Origin: an uncultured Bacteroidales bacterium
GTDB taxonomy: Bacteria; Bacteroidota; Bacteroidia; Bacteroidales; FEN-979
Direction of reading: 5' to 3'
Length of the DNA stretch: 64,000 nt
NCBI GenBank assembly: GCA_963800585.1
Contig: CAWDBP010000008.1
Location: 262,175-326,174 of the forward strand
Shown here: positions 45,376 to 61,969 of the stretch, piece by piece
Position numbering within the stretch: position 1 is the first letter of the stretch
Layout: every line of letters begins with the position of its first letter
The notes under the pieces: model-generated
Databases searched by the model: none
The model's input: the letters and a program-made list of their open reading frames with translations, nothing else
Told to the model about the DNA's origin: nothing
Made by a program: the position numbers and the translations under genes

Positions 45376-48265
45376 ATGAACGGATTCTCGAGAAAACTGC
45401 AGATATCTTTACAAGAACTATGGAGATAAGATCTCTGAACTCTGCATTGTGCTTCCTAACCGCAGAGCAGGGCTGTTTCTTCAAAAATACCTCGGAAAAA
45501 GCATTGGAAAGACCATATGGTCACCCGCCATTTTTTCAATTGAAGATTTTATAATCAACATCTCAGGTCTCCGGATTTGCGATCCTGTGCAGGTATTGTT
45601 TGAACTATACGAGATCCACAAAGGGCTGGAAGGTCAAAATGCACAGCCTTTCGATGAATTTACGAGCTGGGCTCAGCAGTTGCTGGGAGATTTTAATGAG
45701 ATCGACAGTTACCTGGTCGATGCCTCGGATCTGTTTACTTTTCTGAATGAAGCTAAGGCACTCTCCATATGGAACCTGGATAATAAGCCCCTCACTGATT
45801 TTGAAAAGCAATACCTGCGTTTTTTTAATTCTCTGTATACCTACCATGAGCAATTGGAGATCAAGGCTCCTCGCTTCCAACCTTGCCTACCCTGGTCTTC
45901 TGTTCAGAAATACTGCCGGACAAATGTAATACGCTGTCTGAAAAGATGCAATGGGAGAAGATCATATTTGCCGGATTTAATGCATTGACGAAGGCAGAGG
46001 AAGCTATAATTGACAACCTTATTGCCTCAGGAAAAGCAGAAATGTTGTGGGATGCCGATGCTTATTACATGGAGGATGAAAAACAGGAAGCCGGTTTCTT
46101 TCTGAGGAAGTGGAAGAGGAAATGGAAAAACCAGCCCTTTAACTGGATCGAAAAGGATTTTGCCGCCTCACAGCAAAGATCAATATTATCGGAGTTCCTT
46201 TACATGTGGGACAGGCCAAGCTCTGCGGTGAATTATTAAACGATGACCTCCTGAACGATCAACCTTCTGAGAATACTGCCGTGGTAATTATGGATGAACA
46301 GCTTCTTTTACCGGTACTAAACTCACTTCCTCCGGTAGTTAAAGAATTGAATATTACGATGGGGCTCCCACTCCGGCAGACACCTGTATACGACCTCTTC
46401 GATACAATATTCCGGATGCACGAAAATACTCCAGGTTTGAAAGATCAGGAACCCCGGTCAAAGAAATGTTTTATTACCGTGACATACTGAAGGTCCTTCA
46501 ACATCCATATACAGCTCAAATGGCAGGAACGCTGCTAAAAGGAAATACCTTTGTTCTGGAAGAACTGATTGGTGAGGTACGTACCGGAAGCCGTGTTTTT
46601 CTTGGCAAAGAGGAATTGATCCGGGCTGGAACTGACATCTTTTCCGGCAGCCTTGGTTTCCTGGAACCGGTGTTTGATTCATGGAAGGATCCCCTGAAAA
46701 CGATTGATTCCCTTCGGAAGATAATTGAATATTTACGGAATGGGTTTGTCTCAGGGGATAAAGAAAAAGAATCGTATTCAGTTCGTATAGAAATAGAATT
46801 CCTTTATGCATTTTCAAAGATCATCTACAGGCTTTCGACCCTGATTGAAAAATATGACGCAATCAAAGACCTAAAGATATTTCATTCCCTGTTCAATCAG
46901 CTTGCAGGTTTAACATCGTTGCCCTTCTATGGCGAGCCATTGCGGGGATTGCAAATGATGGGAATGCTTGAGACACGAACCCTCGATTTTGATAACCTGA
47001 TCCTTCTCTCTGTAAACGAAGATCTGATTCCCAGCGGAAAAACCTCGCCATCCTTCATTCCCTTCGATATACGCCGTCATTTTCATCTTCCTACCTACCA
47101 GCATAAAAATTCAATCTATGCCTACCATTTCTATCGCCTGATACAGCGGGCAAAACAGGTCTATCTCCTGTACAACACCGAAAGTGACGAACTGGGAGGA
47201 GGTGAAAAAAGCAGGTTCATAAAGCAGATCCAGCAGGAACTAAGAATTTACAATCCCAACATCAGTATCGGGGATGAGATACTGGTTACCTCTCCATTGA
47301 AAAGTTTTTCTCTTCCCGACATCAGGGTTCCCAAAACAGACGGTGTCGCGGAGATGCTCATGACGAAAGCGGAAACCGGTTTCTCACCCACTGCACTGAA
47401 CAACTATATCCAGTGCACGCTGAAGTTTTATTTTGAGGACCTGCTCGGATTACGGGAAGAAAAAGAGCTGGAAGAAACCATTGATTCACAGATCCTTGGA
47501 CTTGCAATTCATGAAACTCTTGAGAAACTTTACCGGCCTTCCCAGGGAGTGCTTCTGACACAGGAAGCTATTGATGGAATGATCCCGCTTTACCAGGCAA
47601 TACTTGACGATGCATTTAAGAAAAAGTTCAAAGGATCAGATTTAGCCTATGGGAAAAATCTGTTGCTCGTGAAGGTAGCCGGTATCCTGGTAAAGAAATT
47701 CCTTGAAAAAGAAAAAAAACTGATCAGCGACTTCAAAACAGAGGGCAAAACAATCATAGTGACCTTCCTGGAAAAATTCCAGACAGGAAAGATCGGGATC
47801 AGGTTAGGAGATCAGGACCTGGAAGTTAAACTAAAAGGGTTTGTCGACCGCATAGATAAAATAGGGGAGGAGTGGAGAATTATCGATTATAAAAGCGGCA
47901 GTGTCGCTTCATCAGATCTGAAGTTTAAGGAGTGGGGTGAACTTAAAGAAGATTCTGACCACGCAAAGGCTTTTCAGCTTTATATGTATGCTTTGCTTTT
48001 CAGAAATGAAAGAAGTGAAAAACCGCTGAAGATCAGGGCAGGTATCATATCCTTACGAAAGCTGACCGGGGGATTTATGCAGGTGCCTTCACTATCTTCT
48101 GAAGAGAAAAAAGAGATTTCTATTAGTGAGGACGATCTGGCTTCGTTTGAGAATGTACTAAAAGAGATCCTCGAAGAAATTTATGACTTCGACATTCCAT
48201 TTATGCAGACAGAAGATGTGAAACGATGCGAAAACTGCGATTTTATCAACCTTTGCGAACGGTAA
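45376..48265 (+). pseudogene. AddB-like PD-(D/E)XK nuclease family protein, broken by about 5-6 frameshifts in its first ~1.1 kb
   Basis: Fragments 45376-45429, 45449-45988, 45883-46239, 46206-46490 and 46466-48265 read as one protein (...ISELCIVLPNRRAGLFLQKYL...). The intact C-terminus has IDRIDKIGEEWRIIDYKSG and CENCDFINLC. Confidence 0.7.
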
Positions 48266-48269
48266 CAGG

Positions 48270-49805
48270 TTACTCTGAAAATACTACGGCCTCATAAGTA
48301 TAGATTTCCGCGTCTTTCCAGCCATCCCATCCCAATCCCGCCTTATCACGTGAACAATGTCCGAGAAAATCCTCTATGGTCCATCCTGTTTCATTGGCCA
48401 CCTGGGGAAGAAATGTCCCTGAGCGGTAACCTTTTTTGATATAAATTCCATGTTTCCCTAAGACAATCTCATTAATAGAATGGATTTTTTTCAATGGCGT
48501 AAGCACGGAGATCTCGATCGAGATTTTTCCGGTTTCCGTCGGATCTACCCTGGGGAAACGGTTATCTTCGGTAGATGAAGCAATTGCCATTTCCTGGACG
48601 ACCTTGTAGAGTGGTTCTTCTGAACTGAAAAGCCCAACGCAGCCTCTAAGAGCTCCGTTTTCATGCAAGGTCACAAATGCACCCGAGGGTGTCTTCAACG
48701 TTTCTGAAAATCCCGAAGAATTAATATCGGGGGTTTTATTGTTATGGATGTATTGCTCCAAAGTCGTACGGGCGATCTTCAGCAGCTCCTTTTTATCTTT
48801 AGCAGTGAGGGAAAATCCCGGAGAAGGAGGAACAGCTTTTTCCTTTTTTGAAATCGCTATCGACCAGTATCCTACAACCTGCTTTTTATCCTGGTATTTC
48901 GAATCACCTGAGTTTTGGTAATGAACAGGTGTCATTGAAATGCCGGGTTCGTCTTCCGTCATGTAGAGCAATGTCAGCACCGATGTCCACCCGCACAGGC
49001 TGGTGGCCAGGTTTGTTACATTTTTATCTTCATTGGCTTTTAAGGTGCTCAGCAGTTTATCCGGATGGTTGGTGAGAATGGCATCACAGGTGTTCTTATC
49101 CACAACCAGTGCATCATCGTAGGGTGGGTAATGTGAGAAATCACTGCTGATCACAAACAGGTTCTTGCCGTTCATGTAAGGTCTCAATGCATTGGCAATC
49201 TTCTTGCAGGATTCAGACGACTGCGTCCCCAGGATGATTGGAACCAGTGTAAAGCTTTTCTTCAGGTGATACTGCAGAAATGGTACCTGGTCCTCTATGC
49301 AATGTTCCTTCAATTCTGCTTCTGGATGAAAAGAAAACACTGCATTTTCTTTTATAAGCTTATTCGCCAGTTCGATATTTACCTTTACTTTTCCAAGCGG
49401 AGTCTGGTAATCCCCGATGTTGTATATGGAGGCACCCATAAAGGATACATAATGGCTCGATCCGATAATAAACACGTTATCATATTGTTTATCAGGATCA
49501 AGCTGGTTATAACTACTCGCAGCCACAACGCCTGAAAATTCATAACCGGCATGCGGGCAAATAATAGCTGCAACATCTTTTACAGTTGAGGGTTTTGCTT
49601 TTGAGAAAAGGTCTCCCAACATAGCACGGAGGGCTGAAGGATCGGAGGGGTAAAAACTTCCGGCAACTGCCATTGGTCTGTCGACCAATGCAGGGGTTAC
49701 TTTGTTGTCCTGGGAATGGCAACCGGTTTCAGCCAGAAGAAAAATTAAAACCAGCCAAATCCAGGATTGGATCTTTTGCATATTTTTTATACATTTGGAC
49801 TTCAC
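48270..49805 (-). CDS. Fused AmmeMemoRadiSam system protein B (MEMO1-like) + protein A (AMMECR1 domain), with an N-terminal signal peptide/possible lipoprotein anchor
   Basis: N-terminal half: AGSFYPSDP...ICPHAGYEFSG...ISSDFSHYP. C-terminal half: GAFVTLHENGALRGCVG...EISVLTPL...GKHGIYIKKGYRSGTFLPQV. Leader: MQKIQSWIWLVLIFLLAETGC. Confidence 0.8.
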   Translation of the reverse strand: MKSKCIKNMQKIQSWIWLVLIFLLAETGCHSQDNKVTPALVDRPMAVAGSFYPSDPSALRAMLGDLFSKAKPSTVKDVAAIICPHAGYEFSGVVAASSYNQLDPDKQYDNVFIIGSSHYVSFMGASIYNIGDYQTPLGKVKVNIELANKLIKENAVFSFHPEAELKEHCIEDQVPFLQYHLKKSFTLVPIILGTQSSESCKKIANALRPYMNGKNLFVISSDFSHYPPYDDALVVDKNTCDAILTNHPDKLLSTLKANEDKNVTNLATSLCGWTSVLTLLYMTEDEPGISMTPVHYQNSGDSKYQDKKQVVGYWSIAISKKEKAVPPSPGFSLTAKDKKELLKIARTTLEQYIHNNKTPDINSSGFSETLKTPSGAFVTLHENGALRGCVGLFSSEEPLYKVVQEMAIASSTEDNRFPRVDPTETGKISIEISVLTPLKKIHSINEIVLGKHGIYIKKGYRSGTFLPQVANETGWTIEDFLGHCSRDKAGLGWDGWKDAEIYTYEAVVFSE

Positions 49806-49822
49806 TACAAAGTTAACAAATC

Positions 49823-51958
49823 ATGATCAGATTTGAAAACACATTAAAGATTTCTTTATTCACCCTGGGCTTTTCTTCACTTGCCACGCAGGTATTCCTG
49901 ATCCGTGAATGTTTCTCTGTATTGAATGGCAATGAACTCGTCATTGGACTGGTGTTGACAAACTGGATGCTGCTTACCGGGGCAGGCGCTTACCTTGGCA
50001 GATTTTTCGGAAAGATGAAAGGAAAAAAACAGTTCCTTCTATTCCTTCAATTCCTTTTTTCGTTGCTTCCAATATTGATGCTCTTAAAACTCGACCTCTG
50101 GAAAGCGGTCTCAATTCCCTCAGGTAGTGTGCCCGGGCTTATTCCCGTAATCCGTTCGATGTTTCTCTTTCAATTGCCGTTCTGCCTTGTTAATGGATTC
50201 CTGTTTGTCGCCTATGTCCATGAGTTGTCAGGAATAACCGGAAAGAATGCCTCCTCCGGTTCCTATGCTACCGAGTCCTTTGGAGGAATGTTTGCAGGAT
50301 TACTGGTGAATATTTTTGTTTTGAAATTTTCAGGAATGTATGATGGACTTCGTATCCTGCTGGTCATCAATCTTCTTGTGTGCATTCTCTATTCCATTAC
50401 TTGCGGTATCAGATCTCAGAAATTGATCATGATCCCTGTTTGCCTGATATTTATGGTAATCCCTTTTTTTACAGATCTTGATTCTTACACCTCGAAACTG
50501 TTTTATCCGGACCAGCATCTGATCTTTCATAAAAATACGGCTTATGGGAAACTGGATGTGACCATGAATGCCAGGCAGCTCAATTATTTTGAAAATGGAT
50601 TACTTCTCTTTTCTTCCAACAATGAAATTGTGAATGAAGAATCTGTTCATTTTGCCATGATTCAGCATCCGTCTCCAAAAAATGTACTATTGATTTCAGG
50701 AGGAATCTCCGGCACCTTGAATGAGATTCTGAAATACCATCCCACGCGTATTGATTATGTTGAGCTCGATCCCGGATTGATCGGCCTGGGACGAAGGTAT
50801 TCAAAGATCCTTGATGATACAAGAATTAATGTTATTCATGGGGATGCACGCCGGTTTATCAGGCAAACCCACGAAAAATATGACGTGGTGCTCGTGAACC
50901 TGCCTGAACCTTCGACATTGCTGATTAATCGCTTTTATTCCTCTGAATTCCTTCTGGAATTAAAAAAGGTTCTCAATCCGGGCGCGGTGGTTTGTCAAAG
51001 TTTGCCCACCACTTCTGACTATGTCAGCAAAACTGCTGCAAGAACAAATTCTATACTGGTTCAGACCCTGAAAACTAGCTTCCATAATGTGCTGGTGCTA
51101 CCAGGACAAAAAAACTATTTCCTCGCTTCAGACAGCAGTCTGTCACCGGAAATTGCAACAATGATTTCAGCACGGGGTATCTCTAATCTTTATGTAAACT
51201 CATGGTATCTCGATGAAAATTCACTGAAAGAAAGAAGTGAATACATCCAGGCTAACCTGGACAAGAATGCGCAAGTGAACAGTGACTTCAGGCCCGTTGC
51301 TTTTTTCCGGCAATTACATTATTGGACATCTATGTTTGAATGGAATGTGATTGCAACAGCGATCGTGATCATTGTTTTGATTTTAATTGTTTTCTTCAGT
51401 CTGAACAGGATCAGCCTTGGCCTTTTTACCGGTGGGTTTACAGCTTCCTCGCTTGAACTGTTGATCCTGGTTTCATTCCAGGTCATATATGGGTATGTCT
51501 TCCTGGCGACCGGAATCATCCTCGCTATATTCATGGCAGGACTTGCACTTGGCGCCTTTTCATTTCATAAGATCATCCATGTTCCTGATCAAAAAAGATA
51601 TATACACCTTCAACTTTGCCTTGCATTGTTTTCACTCGGATTTCCTTTCATCATCCTGGCTATAAACCTGCCCGGAATGCCCATAATTATTGTCCAGGTC
51701 GTTTTTCTTTTATTGACCCTCTTATTGTCATTTATTATTGGCCTTGAATTTTCAGTTGCCTCTGCCATCGGGAATAGAGATATTACGGTTAGAATGTCAT
51801 TCAATTACTCCGCCGACCTCTTTGGATCAGCAATAGGGGCAATAGTCACAACCTTAATTTTGCTTCCTTTCCTTGGTTTTGTTTATACTTGCTTCATCAT
51901 GGTCGCGTTGAATATTTTTAGTGCAGGTTTTCTTTATTTCAAGCAGAAAAAAGTGTAA
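49823..51958 (+). CDS. Fused polytopic membrane / spermidine-synthase-like (class I methyltransferase-fold) protein
   Basis: About 7 N-terminal TM helices, a central VLLISGGISGTLNEILKY...YVELDPGL...DVVLVNLPEPST domain, and about 5 C-terminal TM helices. Confidence 0.6.
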   Translation: MIRFENTLKISLFTLGFSSLATQVFLIRECFSVLNGNELVIGLVLTNWMLLTGAGAYLGRFFGKMKGKKQFLLFLQFLFSLLPILMLLKLDLWKAVSIPSGSVPGLIPVIRSMFLFQLPFCLVNGFLFVAYVHELSGITGKNASSGSYATESFGGMFAGLLVNIFVLKFSGMYDGLRILLVINLLVCILYSITCGIRSQKLIMIPVCLIFMVIPFFTDLDSYTSKLFYPDQHLIFHKNTAYGKLDVTMNARQLNYFENGLLLFSSNNEIVNEESVHFAMIQHPSPKNVLLISGGISGTLNEILKYHPTRIDYVELDPGLIGLGRRYSKILDDTRINVIHGDARRFIRQTHEKYDVVLVNLPEPSTLLINRFYSSEFLLELKKVLNPGAVVCQSLPTTSDYVSKTAARTNSILVQTLKTSFHNVLVLPGQKNYFLASDSSLSPEIATMISARGISNLYVNSWYLDENSLKERSEYIQANLDKNAQVNSDFRPVAFFRQLHYWTSMFEWNVIATAIVIIVLILIVFFSLNRISLGLFTGGFTASSLELLILVSFQVIYGYVFLATGIILAIFMAGLALGAFSFHKIIHVPDQKRYIHLQLCLALFSLGFPFIILAINLPGMPIIIVQVVFLLLTLLLSFIIGLEFSVASAIGNRDITVRMSFNYSADLFGSAIGAIVTTLILLPFLGFVYTCFIMVALNIFSAGFLYFKQKKV

Positions 51959-52061
51959 CTTTATGGTCGTCAAAATTTTTTAATTATTTCCGTCAAGGGG
52001 CTGACTATAAAGTTCTTTCTCATCGCGATGACACCAGGACGCTATTAATTTAGTAATTGAT

Positions 52062-52104
52062 TTAGCGTTTTTTTGCGTCTTAGCGTCTTCGCGGTGAAAA
52101 AAAA
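52062..52104 (+). repeat. 44-bp interspersed repeat, copy 2
   Basis: TTAGCGTTTTTTTGCGTCTTAGCGTCTTCGCGGTG + A-run. Compare 42461-42504. Confidence 0.8.
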
Positions 52105-52152
52105 TTTTAGAGTGCTCCCAATAAAAAATGCAGGGGCAATAGCATTAATCCA

Positions 52153-53317
52153 ATGGCCAAAAAGATATCAAAACGCGATTTTTTACGATACAGTGTTCTG
52201 GGACTTGGGGCAACAGCCGTAAGTGTTGGAACGGCAAGAGCTTTGGCAAAGGGAATGATCAACAAAGAGAATAATGTTTCTTCTGAGCCGCTGGATGACC
52301 TTGGGAAAATACACGCATGAGTCTCCTTATTACGTGCAAACTGCAAGAGGTGTCAAATGCCAGATATGTCCGAATAATTGTATGCTGAAAGAAGGCCAGG
52401 AGAGTCTTTGCCGAACCCATATTGTTAAAGATGGAAAACTTTATTCCATCGCCTATGGGAACCCTTGTTCCGTGCATGTTGATCCTATTGAAAAGAAACC
52501 TTTGTATCATTACCTTCCTTCCACTCACAGTTTTTCCATCGCGACTGCTGGATGTACCTTCGCCTGCCTGAATTGCCAGAATTGGGAGATATCACAGGAG
52601 AGTCCTAAAAATACGGCAAATATCGATCTGATGCCGGCGAAAGTGATGGAAGAAGCAGTTGAAAATGGCTGCAGATCAGTTGCTTATACCTATGCAGAAC
52701 CCATTGCATTTTATGAATACATGTATGACAGCGCTAAATTTGTCAGGGCAAGAGGATTAAAAAATATCCTGGTATCCAACGGATTCATTAACGAAAAACC
52801 ACTGCGTGACCTGTGCAAATACCTTGACGCGGCCAGCATAAATCTGAAAGGGTTCAACGAGGAGATCTATGAAAAACTTAATGGCGGCTCCCTGCAACCG
52901 GTCATGAATTCATTAAAGATCATTAAGGAAGAAGGAGTCTGGCTGGAAATCATCAATCTGATCGTTCCCGGCTGGACCGACAAACCGGATATGATCACAC
53001 AAATGTGCGATTGGCTGGCAAAATCAGGCTTTGAGGAAACACCATTGTCTTTCAGCAGATTCTTCCCGTTATATAAATTAAAGGATCTTCCTTACACTCC
53101 GCTTGACATCCTCGAAAAAGCACGCGAGATAGCAATGAAAGCAGGGATTAAATACGTCTACATTGGCAATGTCCCTGGTTCTCCTGCTGAAAACACCTAT
53201 TGTCCTACCTGTAAAAAAGTGGTTATCGAACGCAGAGGCTTTACCATTCTCAACAATTACATCAAAGATTCCGCTTGTAAGTTTTGCGGAACAAAAATTG
53301 CCGGTGTCTGGAATTAA
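52153..53317 (+). CDS. AmmeMemoRadiSam system radical SAM enzyme with a Tat-like (KR) signal peptide; one frameshift between the leader and the catalytic domain
   Basis: 52153-52320 encodes MAKKISKRDFLRYSVLGLGATAVSVGTARALA.... The 52274 ORF continues ...LGKYTHESPYYVQTARGVKCQICPNNC... with the radical SAM motif AGCTFACLNCQNW. The frames overlap in 52259-52320. Confidence 0.75.
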
Positions 53318-54624: not shown

Positions 54625-56059
54625 ATGAAACGTTTGATTGGATTTTTTCTGGTAGCTCTGGCCGGTGGCGCTATTGCCTTAGGCGCGTTACAAATTAATG
54701 GAAAAGAAACAACATTATTATCCTTATCCGTCCAGGCAGCAATTATCATTACGACCGGTGAATTATATTCCTGGAACCCCTTTTAATGAGCCTGGATTTT
54801 GAATCTGCCGCCGCAATATCTGTACCTGCAGTTGTTCATATAAAGACTGAGTTTTCAGCAGAAAAGTAATGTATATGATGATTTTTTCAATTTTTTCAAT
54901 TTCGGACAGGGAATGCCTAACCAGGCGATAGAAGCCATGGGTTCAGGCGTGATCATTGATGCAGATGGTTATATTGTTACCAATAATCATGTTGTGCAGG
55001 ATGCAGACAATATCACGGTAACACTTAACGACAAACGTGTTTATAAAGCGACTATCATCGGATGCCGATGCAGGTAGCGACCTTGCCCTGATCAAGATTG
55101 ATGAAAAAGGACTTCCGTTTCTTACCTATGGGAATTCTGATGATGCAAGAATTGGAGAGTGGGTGCTGGCAGTTGGCAATCCTTTTAATTTAACATCAAC
55201 GGTCACAGCAGGAATTGTGAGTGCCAAAGCCCGTGACATTAACATCCTGGGTTCTCAGGGTGCAGTTGAATCATTTATCCAGACCGATGCTGCCGTTAAC
55301 CCAGGTAACAGCGGCGGCGCGCTTGTGAACCTTAAAGGGGAACTTATCGGTATCAATGCCGCCATTGCTTCAGGAACAGGAAATTATGTAGGGATATTCC
55401 TTTGCAATCCCTTCAAACATTGTTAAAAAGGTCGTGGATGACTTCATGAAATTCGGGAAGATCCAGAAGTGGACTATCTCGGGATACGATATAAGGAGAT
55501 TGACGACCAGTTTGCAAAAGATAATGATCTGCCAGCTATAAAAGGCGTTTATGTTCAGGAGGTCATTGAAGGTGGGGCAGCAGAAAAAGCAGGAGTAAAA
55601 AAAGGTGATGTCATATTGCAGATGCAGGGTATGCCTGTAGACAGTAAATCAGAACTTATCGAGATCATCAACCAGCATAATCCGGGTGACAAGATCAATC
55701 TTACTGTTTTCAGGGATGGCAAACAACTGGATGTTCCAGTGACTCTACTAAGTGAAAATGAGAACCTGGCTTTTACAAAAGATGATCAGATTATTATTCA
55801 TGGTGCTACCTTCCAGCACATTAATGATAGTGAGAAACATCGGTATGGTATCGATGACGGTTTTAAAATCGTTCATCTCGATAACGGTTTACTGAGAAAT
55901 TCGGGTATCAGGGAGGGTTTTATAGTAGTTGCAGTTGATAAACAACCTATCCATTCTACACAGGACCTCAAGGAAGCATTTACATCGAAGAGAGGAGGGG
56001 TTCTCATCGAAGGTGTTTACCCCAATGGCATGAGGGCGTATTATGGCATAGGAATATAA
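54625..56059 (+). pseudogene. htrA: HtrA/DegP/DegQ-type periplasmic serine protease with a PDZ region, broken by about 6 frameshifts
   Basis: Pieces in three frames read MKRLIGFFLVALAGGAIALGA..., [62 protein letters not shown] (catalytic Ser) and the PDZ-like segment 55469-56059. Confidence 0.75.
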
Positions 56060-57365: not shown

Positions 57366-57405
57366 ATAATTCATAATTATAATTCGTAATTAATAATACA
57401 TAATG
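57366..57405. repeat. AT-rich reiterated ATAATT(C) tract
   Basis: ATAATTCATAATTATAATTCGTAATTAATAATACATAATG. Shares the GTAATT(C) unit with 58561-58582. Confidence 0.6.
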
Positions 57406-57552
57406 CCTGCATAACCAACCCAATGATGCATCGTAGCCTTGGCAGTTTTACCCATTATAAGGTCACTAACCATAAGCGTGGCTCGTCAAGCGAGGTGCCA
57501 TAACCGATAAAAATACCTTGCAGGGGTTTACCGGATATTGCAGCCTGCATCT

Positions 57553-58509
57553 TCAGGATGGTAAGCAATCCAATGGGACAGAGTATCTTCCGCACCAGGT
57601 CCATTTGTAAGACTTATAATCATCATCTATAAGCGTGTACTGTGTGAATTTTTTTACTTTTTCCTGTTCCAGCGGTCCATAAAGCGATTCATTGATGATC
57701 TTCATTTCATGCTCTTTTGCTTCCGCATATCCTTTATCATCACAGCCATAGAAGGCGAAATTGGATCCGTTCCACTCCTCGTCCCCATAATGAACGGCAT
57801 CGGTCGACATCACAATGGCTACATCCCTGCCCCATTTCAAACCTTTAGCTTTTAGCGCCTTTTCGATGGCCGGGGCGAGAAGGTCTGCGAGGTGATCCAT
57901 TCTTTCATACGACATATAAGGTACAAGAATTGAAACGATCCTGACCTTCTTGTTATAATATTGAAGAAATGGAATTATGGCTTCAACCGAATGTTCGGCC
58001 TGCTGTAGACTGTCATAGACTATGAACGCTTCACCTGGCAGGTTTTTCATGATTTCTTCACGAAGATCCGGCACGATGATGTTGCCATAAGGTTCCTTCC
58101 ATTGATCAAAAAAATCGAATACCAGCCGGCCCTCAATATTGAATTGTTTCGCCTTATGGGCAACACCGAACAGGATGATCATGCTGGCGTGGATGTTCTT
58201 CAATACCTCCGGGTAGAGCCATCCTGCATATACATAATCATCGTGTGGACAAATGGCGGCTTTCTGAAATGAATGTGAGCCAATTCCCTTAGGTTTGACT
58301 TTCATGCCTTCGCCATGCCTGTTTAGTTTCGCGATTCGGCTCATGACAGAATCCATCTGCCAGGAATGTGAAGCAAATCCAACTGTGTCAAGAGGATGAC
58401 GAACACGGATGGGTGATGATTTAGCTTGCGACCATGCAGTATTTGCAAGGATGGTCATGATAAGAAAACAAGCAAGTTTTAGACCGGTTATTTTGACGGA
58501 TTGATTCAT
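57553..58509 (-). CDS. Secreted MEMO1/LigB-superfamily protein (second Memo-like gene)
   Basis: Signal peptide ...ILANTAWSQA, then ICPHDDYVYAGWLY and MSTDAVHYG motifs, analogous to the PHAGY / SSDFSHY motifs of the fused gene at 48270. Confidence 0.55.
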   Translation of the reverse strand: MNQSVKITGLKLACFLIMTILANTAWSQAKSSPIRVRHPLDTVGFASHSWQMDSVMSRIAKLNRHGEGMKVKPKGIGSHSFQKAAICPHDDYVYAGWLYPEVLKNIHASMIILFGVAHKAKQFNIEGRLVFDFFDQWKEPYGNIIVPDLREEIMKNLPGEAFIVYDSLQQAEHSVEAIIPFLQYYNKKVRIVSILVPYMSYERMDHLADLLAPAIEKALKAKGLKWGRDVAIVMSTDAVHYGDEEWNGSNFAFYGCDDKGYAEAKEHEMKIINESLYGPLEQEKVKKFTQYTLIDDDYKSYKWTWCGRYSVPLDCLPS

Positions 58510-58535: not shown

Positions 58536-60962
58536 TTACCATAATTTTGCAAGGCTATCTCGTAATTCGTAATTCGTAATTATTTCAACGATCCCTTTGT
58601 CTCCATCCAGTTTCACGACATCTGCATTTTTCAGGAACTTTTTAGCACCTTTTGCCCCGACAACTGCTGGGATGCCATATTCCCTCGCTACAACCGCGCC
58701 ATGAGACAGGGGGCTTCCGATTTCTGTTATAAGTCCTGATACGATGCTGAAATATGGCGACCAACCGATATCTGTAAAAGAGGCTACCATGATTTCTCCG
58801 GCTTGCAGCATCGCAGCATCTTCGAGGGTGTTGACGATCCTCACCTTTGCCTGCACAACACCGCTGCTCACAGGGATGCCTCTTAACTGTGTGTCCAGGA
58901 TCACGATTTCCTGATCTTCTTCAATGGGTTCAGGAATACCCTGGCAAACCTCTGCAAACTGAAGCGCTGCCGTCTGAGGAAGCAGCTCCCTGCGTTTACC
59001 GGCCTTATTTCGCCAGGATGGAGAATGGTCCCTGATCATCAGTCCGATCTCTTCATGCGTCAGGTAATAAACCTGGTCAGCATCATCCAGAAGCCCTTCC
59101 TTAACCAGTATTTCAGCATAGTGCTGCCAGGCTGTCCTGATCTTGTGCAAAACCTTTATGGATGCTGATTTTGTGATCTCTCTCCGTGAAACTGAAATAC
59201 GGGCACTTCCGAGGAATGATTTTATAACGATTTTTTGCCATTGCTTCAAGCCGGCGAGTATTTCCTTCGTTTTCTTAATGATGGCTTCAGGATGATGTAT
59301 TTTCTCTCCTGACCTTAACCGGGTTTGCAACATCTGAACCAGTTGTAACGGATTCTCTTCCCAGGGCATTTCATGGAGTTCAGCTTCCCGGACACAACGG
59401 TGTCCATGCCGTTCAATAAATGTTTTATAGGCCCGGATCACTTCCGGTGGCGAATCCTGGGTCAGGAGCCTCAGGGCTTCTGCAGGCGTTGCTGTAATAA
59501 AAATGCCGGCAAAGCGCTTCTCCGACTGGATCAGCGAGGCAAATAGGTCAAGGGACTTTACGGCATCGGCGCTTTCAATATCAGGAATATCGGTTAGAAG
59601 AAGTGTCGCTATATGATGATCTTCTGAGGTGGGAAGCCGCTTGTTGGACGTGAGAATGCCCATTAGTGCTGAGTAGAGCGTTCCTGACTGGGAGGAGGCA
59701 ATGATGTGATGACCAAAAGCCTCTTTCAGCACTTCCCGTGCATCATCAAGGGCCTTGTAGTCTTTTTCAAGATCTCCTGTTTGAGTGACCTTATAATTAT
59801 CGGCAAGAAATAGAAGCCTCCTGACATTTTTTTTTGTCCAGCTCAGGCTGATCATCTGTTTTATAAAGTGCATCACCCGTAAAGGGAAATTCGATGTAAA
59901 CTTCACATCCGGAATATCGATGACCTTCCCGATCACGGCAAACTGAACATTTTCAGCTTTATTCAGCCACACATTACGGGGATAATCCATCATGTTTGTC
60001 ATGTTGATGAACAACCGGTTATAGAACATCTGGATATAACGGAAGCTTTTATATTTTTTGAGACTGTAAGCGCCTGCCGCCTCTGCCCAAACAGTCATCC
60101 CATAATCAACCGCATGAAAAGAAACTGAATACGTAAGGGGAGTGACAACGCCCGGCATCATCTCGCCGATATTGCCAAGCGTCCAGGTGTCATTGCTGCT
60201 TCCTGTGACTGTGTCCAGCTCATTGTAATGAACCTCGGGAAGCGTGGTAACAGGCCTGACCTGCAGCCATTGAATTTGATCTTCTTCATCGATGGCCCAC
60301 TCCAGGTCTACCGGGTAGCCCAAATGAGCTTGTGCTTTTAATGAAGCATCCAGGATTTCCCGTATATGATCCGATGAAAGCAAGCCTCCTTGTTTTTTTA
60401 CCTGGTCAGAGATATTTGATCCACTGTGGTATATTTTATAATGAATGGCATCCTTAGTTCCACTCACAAGGTCTTCGCCATGGCCTTTTACAGCATTGAT
60501 GATAACCTGGTCGCGCCGGCCTGTTACAGGATCGGCCGTGAATACCACCCCGGCGACTTTTGCATTTACCATGTTTTGTAAGATCACAGAGATCCTGATG
60601 TCGGCGTCTTCCGAAAGGTTGGTGACATATTCTCGCACCCGGTCTGAACGGCTGGCTTCGATGCATTTTATGATAGCATCTTTAATGGCAGGGATCCCAT
60701 TCAGGTGCAAATAGGTTTCAAATTGTCCGGCAAAAGAAGCATTGACACCGTCTTCGCTCACCGCGGAAGAACGCACGGCCTTGGGTCCATTGCCCAGCAG
60801 AGTAATGCTTTTTTCAAGGGGAAGATGTTCAAGGCTTTGAAGGGTAGGGTGAACGATCACAAAAGCATCAGGGACATTCAACCCGAGATCTCTCAGGATC
60901 TTCAACCCCCTCGCCTTGCCCCCGATCTCTTCGTCAGTAATTTCGGAAATGAATCTGATCAC
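58536..60962 (-). CDS. PEP-utilising enzyme with PPDK_N-type ATP-grasp N-terminus and a swivelling phosphohistidine C-terminus, but no PEP/pyruvate TIM barrel (rifampin-phosphotransferase-like architecture)
   Basis: GGKARGLKILRDLGLNVPDAFVI... at the N-terminus and TEIGSPLSHGAVVAREYGIPAVVG near the C-terminus. The GTG start overlaps the upstream stop (GTGA). Confidence 0.7.
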   Translation of the reverse strand: MIRFISEITDEEIGGKARGLKILRDLGLNVPDAFVIVHPTLQSLEHLPLEKSITLLGNGPKAVRSSAVSEDGVNASFAGQFETYLHLNGIPAIKDAIIKCIEASRSDRVREYVTNLSEDADIRISVILQNMVNAKVAGVVFTADPVTGRRDQVIINAVKGHGEDLVSGTKDAIHYKIYHSGSNISDQVKKQGGLLSSDHIREILDASLKAQAHLGYPVDLEWAIDEEDQIQWLQVRPVTTLPEVHYNELDTVTGSSNDTWTLGNIGEMMPGVVTPLTYSVSFHAVDYGMTVWAEAAGAYSLKKYKSFRYIQMFYNRLFINMTNMMDYPRNVWLNKAENVQFAVIGKVIDIPDVKFTSNFPLRVMHFIKQMISLSWTKKNVRRLLFLADNYKVTQTGDLEKDYKALDDAREVLKEAFGHHIIASSQSGTLYSALMGILTSNKRLPTSEDHHIATLLLTDIPDIESADAVKSLDLFASLIQSEKRFAGIFITATPAEALRLLTQDSPPEVIRAYKTFIERHGHRCVREAELHEMPWEENPLQLVQMLQTRLRSGEKIHHPEAIIKKTKEILAGLKQWQKIVIKSFLGSARISVSRREITKSASIKVLHKIRTAWQHYAEILVKEGLLDDADQVYYLTHEEIGLMIRDHSPSWRNKAGKRRELLPQTAALQFAEVCQGIPEPIEEDQEIVILDTQLRGIPVSSGVVQAKVRIVNTLEDAAMLQAGEIMVASFTDIGWSPYFSIVSGLITEIGSPLSHGAVVAREYGIPAVVGAKGAKKFLKNADVVKLDGDKGIVEIITNYELRDSLAKLW
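58561..58582. repeat. CGTAATT x3 tandem heptamer at the extreme 3' end of the PEP-utilising ORF
   Basis: CGTAATTCGTAATTCGTAATTA read directly. It encodes the non-conserved tail ...TNYELRD.... Confidence 0.7.
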
Positions 60963-61969
60963 AGGCTGTATTTATCAGAATGAAACCCGAATTCCACCAT
61001 TCCAAGCCCTTCAACCCGGTCAAATTTATAGTTTCCTATGGCTTCGAACATCAGGTATTTATGATCCATGATATAAGGGAAATGCCCCTTACGGAAAAAC
61101 TCCATGGTATGGATTTTACCACTCCTCATTTTTAATTCAATCACAGCATTATCCGGCAAAAGTTTGTTTCTGGAAACGCTCTCAAGGTCAGTGCAATCAA
61201 CAACTGCATCGATGGTCCCATCAGGTTCAACTACAAAGCCTGCAGTGAGCCGGCCCAGGAAATCAAACCGGATGGTGGTCACCGTCCAGCTATATCCGGC
61301 ATCTGATTTTCCTGTGATCCAGTAATGACGGTCCCAGGTAGTCCAGTTGCGTGAACCGAAGGAATGATCCCGCGATCCCCACATCTTTACTTCATGTCTT
61401 ATTCCATCGAGGATGATATATCCCGTGAGGCTGCCGGTTTGCTCATAATGAACCTGGTGGGTGTCTTTCAGGTTGAAAAAGAAACTCCGGTTCCATTTTG
61501 AGGAGGCAATGGCATCGGCAATCAGCCGCTGGTCTGAGCTTTTTGCAAAATCATAAACTTCATGCTCTCCTGTAAAAAGAAGGTTGGTTTCACAGGTGTG
61601 TTCCTTCCCTTCCTCTCCGGTCACCTTGCCTTCATAGGTAATTCTCCAGATCTTGCCGGTCTCGACGGGTTCCCATTTAAGGTTTCCAAGTTGAAAGCCT
61701 TCTCCTTCTGCTCCCGGATCCTGGTGCAATCCGAAGAACCCAAATCCGTTAAATTTGAAATCAAACCAATACTCATGAGGCCGGTCGGGTCCGCGAAAAG
61801 CCATACGGGTAATAAATGCATTTCCTTCCCTGTCGCCTCCATAAAAGTAAGAGCTGTCGTTAGGAAAAGGTTGCTTAAGGTCAACATGTTTTTGTTCAAG
61901 TATTTCAACAGGTAGCTGGCGGCTCTTGGTTCGTTTTACCATCTGCCGGGCAAGGAATTGTTTGAGCAT
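60959..61969 (-). CDS. Hypothetical protein (336 aa), translationally coupled to the PEP-utilising enzyme
   Basis: Intact ORF with beta-rich composition and several W-containing motifs. No family recognised. Confidence 0.5.
   Translation of the reverse strand: MLKQFLARQMVKRTKSRQLPVEILEQKHVDLKQPFPNDSSYFYGGDREGNAFITRMAFRGPDRPHEYWFDFKFNGFGFFGLHQDPGAEGEGFQLGNLKWEPVETGKIWRITYEGKVTGEEGKEHTCETNLLFTGEHEVYDFAKSSDQRLIADAIASSKWNRSFFFNLKDTHQVHYEQTGSLTGYIILDGIRHEVKMWGSRDHSFGSRNWTTWDRHYWITGKSDAGYSWTVTTIRFDFLGRLTAGFVVEPDGTIDAVVDCTDLESVSRNKLLPDNAVIELKMRSGKIHTMEFFRKGHFPYIMDHKYLMFEAIGNYKFDRVEGLGMVEFGFHSDKYSL

Follow-up and report, generated by a model that had tools for sequence, protein, structure and literature searches.

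A four-part AmmeMemoRadiSam locus predicted to act outside the cytoplasm in an uncultured Bacteroidales bacterium

A locus in a 64,000-nucleotide stretch of DNA from an uncultured Bacteroidales bacterium (the window; GenBank assembly GCA_963800585.1, contig CAWDBP010000008.1, positions 262,175 to 326,174) is probably an extracytoplasmic variant, in four parts, of the AmmeMemoRadiSam system, a well-supported reading with an estimated probability of about 70%. AmmeMemoRadiSam (TIGR04335, TIGR04336, and TIGR04337) unites AMMECR1, Memo and a radical SAM (S-adenosylmethionine) enzyme that resembles the activating enzyme of pyruvate formate-lyase (PFL); the set was defined by comparative genomics and is uncharacterised. 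All three families are present in the window, where they keep the Memo-AMMECR1 fusion, a common architecture of the system, and the CxxxCxxC motif and extra Cys groups of the radical SAM enzyme (rSAM below). Unlike in the typical set, every protein of the set here carries an export signal, and an inserted gene, encoding a membrane protein with parts that resemble the major facilitator superfamily (MFS) and spermidine synthase (SpeE), tracks the exported form. In the proposed mechanism, rSAM would be made and loaded with iron-sulfur (Fe-S) clusters in the cytoplasm, exported in the folded state through the twin-arginine translocation (Tat) pathway by a K-R leader, and probably cleaved after Ala32; the Memo-AMMECR1 fusion would be exported by Sec and lipid-anchored through Cys21; the MFS-like/SpeE-like protein would carry SAM, an adenosyl compound akin to it, or the substrate through the membrane and present it to rSAM; and a secreted Memo paralog (Memo2), encoded 4 kb away, would be the fourth part. 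Together, these proteins may carry out a PFL-activase-like radical modification of an envelope substrate (a protein or a membrane isoprenoid/lipid) rather than of RNA.

Gene calls were made from a six-frame listing of open reading frames (ORFs) and hidden Markov model (HMM) searches of the window, and the family memberships are clear. The fusion ORF (48270-49805, minus strand) matches TIGR04336 with 231.3 bits (cut-off 26; E 1e-68) and TIGR04335 with 166.2 bits (cut-off 99; E 4e-49), and its Pfam matches are Memo (1.8e-58) and AMMECR1 (1.6e-50). The rSAM ORF (52274-53317, plus strand), taken without its leader, scores 337.5 bits against TIGR04337 (cut-off 220; E 7e-101) and 3e-19 against Pfam Radical_SAM; the Memo2 ORF (57553-58509, minus strand) scores 79 bits against TIGR04336 and is more divergent than the Memo domain of the fusion. 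The AmmeMemoRadiSam families are encoded together within 3.5 kb, by genes that lie inside 48270-53317, and the same arrangement recurs in L001, L002 and about 45 further loci. A first-pass annotation, made from the letters alone, had listed a Memo-like/AMMECR1 fusion with a hydrophobic leader ending LLAETG/C (here and below, a slash marks a predicted cleavage site), the matching radical SAM gene, and a second Memo-like protein with a Sec leader. The HMM searches confirm all three, Memo2 having a Sec-type N-terminus and a real 3' end near 57393; what the list missed is the fourth component, the MFS-like/SpeE-like gene at 49823-51958.

The case for export begins with the N-terminus of rSAM, which in the window is cut off from the enzyme: the ORF that holds the leader (52153-52320, MAKKISKRDFLRYSVLGLGATAVSVGTARALAKG...) is one frame off the enzyme ORF, and stop codons confine the shift to 52262-52320. 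Removing a single base at about 52299-52309, among runs of CC, GGG and AAAA, gives a protein of 387 amino acids (aa). A DNA alignment with two orthologs places exactly one surplus base in the window, near GAC[C]TTGGGAAAA, and tblastn puts the frame change between 52301 and 52308. Among 5.8 billion proteins searched, the repaired protein has more than 100 full-length homologs, most of them 383-390 aa long, with 64-91% identity and 99-100% coverage; nearly all start with the same leader, a match that, in these alignments, is far beyond chance. Judged by these homologs, ORF 52153-52320 is the true N-terminus of rSAM. The split itself is almost certainly an assembly error of one inserted base, because four of 13 syntenic genes are frameshifted in the window yet intact in a syntenic metagenome contig (L001) whose rSAM is 91% identical. 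These four genes, which carry at least six frame changes in the window, encode an AddB-like nuclease (45376-48265; 964 aa in L001), HtrA (54625-56059; 475 aa), Memo2 (57393-58509; 373 aa), and rSAM itself (387 aa). The assembly behind the window thus appears to be rich in indels.

Might the frameshift be real? The rSAM gene would then be a pseudogene, or would yield a leaderless product from the ATG at 52274, and this copy of the system would be decaying. The frameshift is present in the sequence as given, and a start at 52274 would produce a 347-aa protein that holds the whole core; still, this explanation is scarcely credible, given that three other genes within 20 kb (AddB-like, HtrA and Memo2) have frameshifts too, at short sites rich in homopolymers, and are intact in L001, that the leader codons are undecayed (81% identity to the ortholog over 52 residues), and that the same type of break between leader and core recurs in an unrelated metagenome-assembled genome (MAG; L074, 5100-5450, where the leader ORF is likewise hydrophobic). 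Programmed frameshifting is ruled out, since the orthologs are contiguous and the neighbouring genes are broken too.

The leader so restored has the n-h-c layout of a Tat signal: an S-K-R-D-F-L-R motif, a weakly hydrophobic h-region, and a c-region T-A-R-A-L-A/K. In a 49-sequence alignment, F10 is invariant and conservation is at least 90% at both K7 and R8. Members of the close clade have the consensus [ST]-K-R-[DQE]-F-[LIF]-[RK], then an h-region rich in Gly, Ala, Ser and Thr, and lastly [small/aliphatic]-x-A/[KN]. Leader types were called by a heuristic classification with known misses (L002, with a weak h-region, and L074, frameshifted, were assigned by hand). Two Tat HMMs were applied as well (cut-offs: PF10518, 22.7 bits; TIGR01409, 16.7 bits). 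The maximum hydrophobicity over 15 residues is 1.43 for the window rSAM leader vs 1.9-2.9 for the Sec and lipoprotein leaders of the window, in line with medians of 1.58 in the Tat class and 2.75 in the Sec/anchor class. A homolog that also has K-R (P0079) exceeds both HMM cut-offs (28.8 bits on PF10518, 22.0 on TIGR01409), and R-R orthologs exceed that of TIGR01409 (19.8 and 17.3 bits). In the AlphaFold2 model of an intact ortholog (P0001), the confident core starts at about residue 55; residues 1-50 are modelled with low confidence as a helix plus linker, detached from the core, as would be expected for a signal peptide.

How common are such leaders? A search of 1.84 billion representatives of 50%-identity clusters returned 141 full-length members of the rSAM family: 86 lack a leader (about 335-350 aa), 31 carry a Tat-like one (27 with RR, as in TRRDFL, SRRQFL, and NRREFL, two with KR, and two with RK), 15 have strongly hydrophobic N-termini of Sec, lipoprotein or anchor type, and the other nine have different N-terminal extensions. 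Tat-like or hydrophobic N-termini are thus found in 46 representatives, about one third of the family. Because distant members mostly carry RR, the K-R pair is a clade-specific derivative of an ancestral twin-arginine motif in this Bacteroidota clade; the Bacteroidales orthologs L006 and L026 keep RR. Natural K-R variants of Tat signals are known, among them those of TtrB and the plant Rieske protein. The first-pass claims that a Tat-type leader with KR sits in the adjacent frame and is joined to the enzyme by one frameshift are thereby borne out (by the ortholog alignment, tblastn, intact homologs, the conserved motif, and the low hydrophobicity of the h-region). The rSAM/SpeE-like pair has tatA and tatC as immediate neighbours in two MAG contigs (L020, 11173-12151; L052, 13320-13818); one of these contigs is labelled Aenigmatarchaeota, has bacterial-looking gene content, and may be mis-binned. 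Two rSAM paralogs stand side by side in L060 (8601-11005) and L079 (1300-4096); in L060, only one of the two has a leader, of RR type, so that a single genome can hold a cytoplasmic and an exported version together.

The passenger fits this route. Eleven conserved Cys residues fall into three groups (the rSAM CxxxCxxC, an N-terminal CxxCxxxC...C, and a C-terminal CxxC...CxxC), which would make the enzyme the kind of multi-cofactor protein that uses Tat. The motifs of its catalytic core are conserved: across 83 sequences, C94, C98 and C101 of the CxxxCxxC motif are invariant and the SAM-binding residues Y140, E142 and P143 are at least 90% conserved, and the T-Y-x-E-P motif and the three cluster Cys are kept in exported and cytoplasmic members alike. 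The best sequence and fold match of the rSAM core is the PFL-activating enzyme (PflA; PDB 3c8f and 3cb8; phmmer 4e-10; Foldseek 8e-12; TM-score 0.71-0.74), and the likeness suggests hydrogen-atom abstraction on a protein/peptide or a bound substrate. PflA is cytoplasmic, has 245 aa and a single cluster; the enzyme encoded here, with its leader, N-terminal four-Cys group and C-terminal CxxC...CxxC group, scores far below the PflA equivalog cut-off (53.6 vs 231.75 bits). Known Tat-exported Fe-S proteins (hydrogenase small subunits, DmsB/NrfC-type ferredoxins, Rieske proteins, and Salmonella TtrB) bear leaders of the S/T-R-R-x-F-L-K type and share with rSAM a weakly hydrophobic h-region on a multi-cluster Fe-S protein; unlike these, the window passenger is a radical SAM enzyme and needs SAM and a low-potential electron donor.

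The second exported component is the Memo-AMMECR1 fusion. Although its ORF reaches back to a GTG at 49805, translation probably begins at the ATG at 49781, the point from which the 503-aa orthologs align. The precursor that begins there runs ...IFLLAETG/C (full leader in Table 1), with a maximum hydrophobicity of 3.21 over ten residues, and is a predicted lipoprotein anchored through Cys21. The 120 fusion homologs listed (P0121-P0240, 60-88% identity) share its architecture; nearly all have a hydrophobic segment ending [GSA]-C, and a [RHNS]-S-Q-[DEN] stretch after the lipobox Cys is conserved (49700-49721 in the window). The resulting C-[RHNS]-S-Q-[DEN] may be a Bacteroidota signal for lipoprotein sorting or surface export, or a functional N-terminal motif. 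The Glu at -3 is atypical of the lipobox, compared with the classical L-[AS]-[GA]-C. As to Memo2, its C-terminus is broken by two more frameshifts (tblastn hits in three frames against the 373-aa ortholog of L001) and its gene ends near 57393; the protein and its Sec-type leader are conserved in L001, and the protein is not conserved in L002.

Do leaders on rSAM and on its partner go together? A pattern scan over one genome per GTDB species, in which the ORFs were searched with the window proteins and the domains of the fusion proteins, gave 80 loci from Bacteroidales, Ignavibacteriota, Desulfobacterota, Verrucomicrobiota, Omnitrophota, Planctomycetota, Chlamydiota, Elusimicrobiota, and other groups. 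A leader was detected on the partner Memo-AMMECR1 protein at 24 of 30 loci with a leader-bearing rSAM, most of the misses being failures of the heuristic classifier, vs five of 13 loci with a leaderless one. At leaderless loci, such as those of Paludibacter-type Bacteroidales, the fusion begins directly at its domain (MKSTKKTIDRSPA...).

If rSAM acts outside the cytoplasm, where does its SAM come from? The best candidate answer is the MFS-like/SpeE-like protein. AlphaFold2, run on a 47-sequence alignment, returned a confident model (pLDDT 87, pTM 0.86) in which seven helices are followed by a mixed alpha/beta domain (residues 219-502) and about seven more helices. In Foldseek searches, the soluble domain matches polyamine aminopropyltransferases (E 1.6e-11, TM-score about 0.7) and the membrane part weakly matches MFS transporters (SV2A, PfHT1, and AmpG; E about 1e-3). 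Mean Lys+Arg counts per loop over the 47 homologs alternate between the two sides of the membrane: 1.7, 2.7, 1.5, 1.8, 0.5, 3.1, 1.9, and 2.7 on one side vs 0.02, 0.11, 0.19, 0.09, and 0.40 on the other. From this alternation, both termini of the protein are predicted to be cytoplasmic and its SpeE-like domain periplasmic.

What could such a domain do? Residue-level alignment with the Thermus enzyme shows that the acids that bind ribose and adenine are kept (VELD and GDARRF), while SGGISG stands in place of the GGGEG motif, whose acid is responsible for selecting decarboxylated SAM, and N-L-P-E-P, which has no catalytic Asp, in place of the catalytic D-L-T-D-P. The scores of the protein lie well below the family cut-offs for SpeE (73.5 vs 249.55 bits for TIGR00417; 147.8 vs 472 bits for PRK03612). 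The domain thus looks like a binder of an adenosyl compound and not like a canonical aminopropyltransferase. Fused MFS/spermidine synthases (NF037959) and PRK03612 aminopropyltransferases also combine a polytopic membrane domain with a spermidine-synthase fold, and NCBI so names some of the homologs; the window protein falls below the cut-offs of NF037959 (22.9 vs 40 bits) and PRK03612, and differs from both in that helices 7 and 8 flank its soluble domain, which is predicted to be periplasmic.

That this protein belongs to the exported form is indicated by its distribution. Among loci with at least 5 kb on both sides, a SpeE-like gene lies within 6 kb of rSAM in 25 of 31 leader-bearing loci vs one of 11 leaderless ones (Fisher p = 5e-5, uncorrected for phylogeny). 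Each of three distant homologs (41-44% identity) is encoded immediately upstream of rSAM, and two of the three are preceded by Memo-AMMECR1. Because it tracks leader-bearing rSAM loci and its distant homologs adjoin rSAM genes, the MFS-like/SpeE-like protein is, on this gene-neighbourhood evidence, a dedicated fourth component of the exported form, beside the three AmmeMemoRadiSam families.

As to the reductant, other phyla offer traces. Members of the rSAM family are fused to DsbD_2 membrane domains (P0245, P0248, and P0270) or to FMN_bind and NapH/NosR-type Fer4_5 modules (P0247, P0252, and P0270), and one (P0249) is a Memo+AMMECR1+rSAM triple fusion behind a single signal peptide. NapH/NosR-like and DsbD/CcdA-type modules feed electrons to redox enzymes outside the cytoplasm, and FMN_bind domains, which are flavinylated there, are markers of electron transfer of this extracytosolic kind (Meheust et al., 2021, PMC8238504). 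In P0263, which consists of a single N-terminal helix, an FMN_bind domain and the rSAM domain with no further helix, rSAM must share the side of the membrane with FMN_bind because no helix separates them. DsbD_2-like genes, some of them fused to FMN_bind/Fer4_5, adjoin rSAM in 11 loci (L044, L056, L058, L059, L061, L062, L069, L070, L073, L078, and L081). Ten of these 11 have leaders of Sec, anchor or lipoprotein type, and the adjacency holds for ten of 12 loci with such leaders vs none of about 50 with true Tat-type ones. By analogy with apocytochromes c, Sec-routed Cys-rich apo-enzymes would need an external thiol-reductant pathway, and Tat-routed ones would leave with their clusters in place. 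In two further family members (P0246 and P0254), the N-terminal signal or anchor precedes a domain typical of cell-surface proteins, either a beta-propeller (Reg_prop/PorZ-like) or one that is CBM_11-like.

These fusions bear on a rival explanation, in which the N-terminal segments are uncleaved anchors, the catalytic domains sit on the cytoplasmic face, and the system is membrane-associated. Such an arrangement would remove the problem of SAM and reductant supply; the AxA motif is not strictly conserved, plain hydrophobic helices replace the RR leaders in some phyla, and the window leader is below the Tat HMM threshold. It is nevertheless improbable: positive charges before the helix predict an N-in, C-out orientation, different phyla share the conserved RR motif, a lipobox Cys is present in the partner, the extracytosolic FMN_bind (PMC8238504) is on the rSAM side in P0263, DsbD_2 is tied only to Sec-type leaders, tatAC stand beside the cluster in two loci, and the SpeE-like domain is predicted outside.

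In a second rival explanation, the proteins are exported and no SAM is supplied outside: rSAM would be preloaded with clusters and SAM, exported by Tat, and limited to one or a few turnovers, for example to place a radical or crosslink on the Memo-AMMECR1 lipoprotein, or would use SAM catalytically, like lysine 2,3-aminomutase. The MFS-like/SpeE-like protein would then handle substrate or product or scavenge 5'-deoxyadenosine/MTA (methylthioadenosine), not SAM. Tat takes folded, cofactor-loaded cargo, and no electron-supply gene was found in Tat-type loci; the SpeE-like domain, which has no catalytic Asp, resembles a binding module. The closest fold, moreover, is that of the PFL-activating enzyme, which spends one SAM per activation of a protein with many turnovers. 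Preloading is unlikely even so: lineages with Sec or transmembrane leaders cannot preload, yet have the same partners; the fused FMN_bind, Fer4_5 and DsbD_2 modules imply a steady supply of electrons and with it more than a few turnovers; and the exported form has a transporter-like partner of its own, which suggests that something crosses the membrane.

Several observations weigh against placing the system outside the cytoplasm. The window leader has K-R instead of R-R and scores 14.1 bits on PF10518, below the cut-off of 22.7; no tatA or tatC was found within the 64-kb window, the rest of the genome not having been searched for Tat genes. DsbD_2 and FMN_bind partners were not found in the window or in other Bacteroidales loci, which thus differ from loci of other phyla in having none of the extracytosolic electron-transfer modules seen there. 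A leaderless rSAM is combined with a leader-bearing partner in six loci (L005, L015, L018, L042, L068, and L070), the co-occurrence statistics ignore phylogeny, and the leader classifier is heuristic, with the misses noted above. A periplasmic source of SAM and a low-potential reductant are not known. The Sec/transmembrane-type N-terminal helices of some phyla could be mere anchors. To our knowledge, Fe-S insertion outside the cell, which such leaders would require, is unprecedented.

The extracytoplasmic reading, which the first-pass annotation had put forward for the whole system, is supported all the same by Tat-type rSAM leaders across phyla, lipoprotein and Sec leaders on Memo-AMMECR1, the linked occurrence of these leaders, fused electron-transfer modules, and tatAC beside the cluster in two loci. 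The same annotation had found the need for SAM and a reductant puzzling; for the reductant, DsbD_2 and FMN_bind/Fer4_5 modules offer an answer in other phyla and leave the puzzle standing at this locus.

Table 1. Features of the AmmeMemoRadiSam locus (window coordinates; a slash marks a predicted cleavage site)
Feature	Position	Strand	Basis
Memo (AmmeMemoRadiSam B) + AMMECR1 (A) fusion, predicted lipoprotein	48270..49781	-	TIGR04336, TIGR04335, Pfam
Signal peptide of the fusion, lipoprotein type, MQKIQSWIWLVLIFLLAETG then Cys21; downstream C-x-S-Q-[DE] conserved	49719..49781	-	
MFS-like 14-helix protein, 711 aa, spermidine-synthase-like insert between helices 7 and 8	49823..51958	+	Pfam Spermine_synth, AlphaFold2
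AmmeMemoRadiSam radical SAM (rSAM) enzyme, 387 aa after removal of one base	52153..53317	+	TIGR04337
Tat-type leader of rSAM, MAKKISKRDFLRYSVLGLGATAVSVGTARALA	52153..52248	+	S-K-R-D-F-L-R motif, hydrophobicity
Site of single-base insertion (CC / GGG / AAAA runs), splits rSAM leader from core	52299..52309	+	
Paralogous Memo-like protein (Memo2), Sec signal peptide MNQSVKITGLKLACFLIMTILANTAWS/Q, two 3' frameshifts	57393..58509	-	TIGR04336

Other neighbours of the cluster were considered and set aside. HtrA, RpoD, OsmC and Exo_endo_phos_3 are syntenic only among close Bacteroidales relatives and were rejected as members of the system; small conserved "ORF families" near the cluster turned out to be antisense shadows of conserved genes. 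Beyond Memo2, at 58536-61969, lie an 808-aa gene of the PPDK_N/PEP-utilizer type (rifampicin-phosphotransferase-like) and a DUF7064 gene, both syntenic in L001.

How does this locus relate to what has been described? The gene set itself is already known, and public databases show Tat annotations on proteins of this kind. Nothing relevant on radical SAM enzymes that are exported or periplasmic, or on AMMECR1 in connection with the periplasm, was found in the searchable literature, and radical SAM, Memo and AMMECR1 are unmentioned in the main text of PMC8238504. The published prediction for the trio of AMMECR1, dioxygenase-like and radical SAM proteins is RNA base modification (Balaji and Aravind, 2007, PMC2034487). 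If the system is extracytoplasmic, this role is ruled out for the periplasmic form, and an envelope protein or a membrane isoprenoid/lipid is a more plausible substrate than RNA. Work by Burroughs et al. in 2019 is reported to have extended the contexts of Memo and to link Memo to the modification of nucleotide bases and aliphatic isoprenoids. No description of an exported variant with an MFS-like/SpeE-like partner and electron-conduit fusions was found in the searchable literature, a coverage that leaves out this 2019 study.

The usual view confines radical SAM enzymes strictly to the cytoplasm, on the grounds that their clusters must be protected and that they depend on SAM and a low-potential reductant. 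The rSAM family challenges this view: about one third of its members have export signals, their partners are secreted or lipid-anchored, an adenosyl-binding domain is predicted in the periplasm, and electron conduits are fused to some of the enzymes. A fuller picture can be offered only tentatively: in anaerobes, radical SAM chemistry may take place in the periplasm, with an MFS-like exporter that brings SAM and a SpeE-like domain that hands it over, and with a DsbD-like or NapH/FMN-type electron route (another one in Bacteroidales), to modify an envelope lipid or protein. If true, this would be the first extracytoplasmic radical SAM system, with the first dedicated SAM exporter, and would relocate the function of Memo and AMMECR1 away from RNA. 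Memo and AMMECR1 are conserved from bacteria to humans and linked to human disease, and their biochemical function is not known. An exported bacterial version argues against a role in RNA modification, at least for this clade, and would narrow the search for the substrate of Memo/AMMECR1 to components of the envelope.

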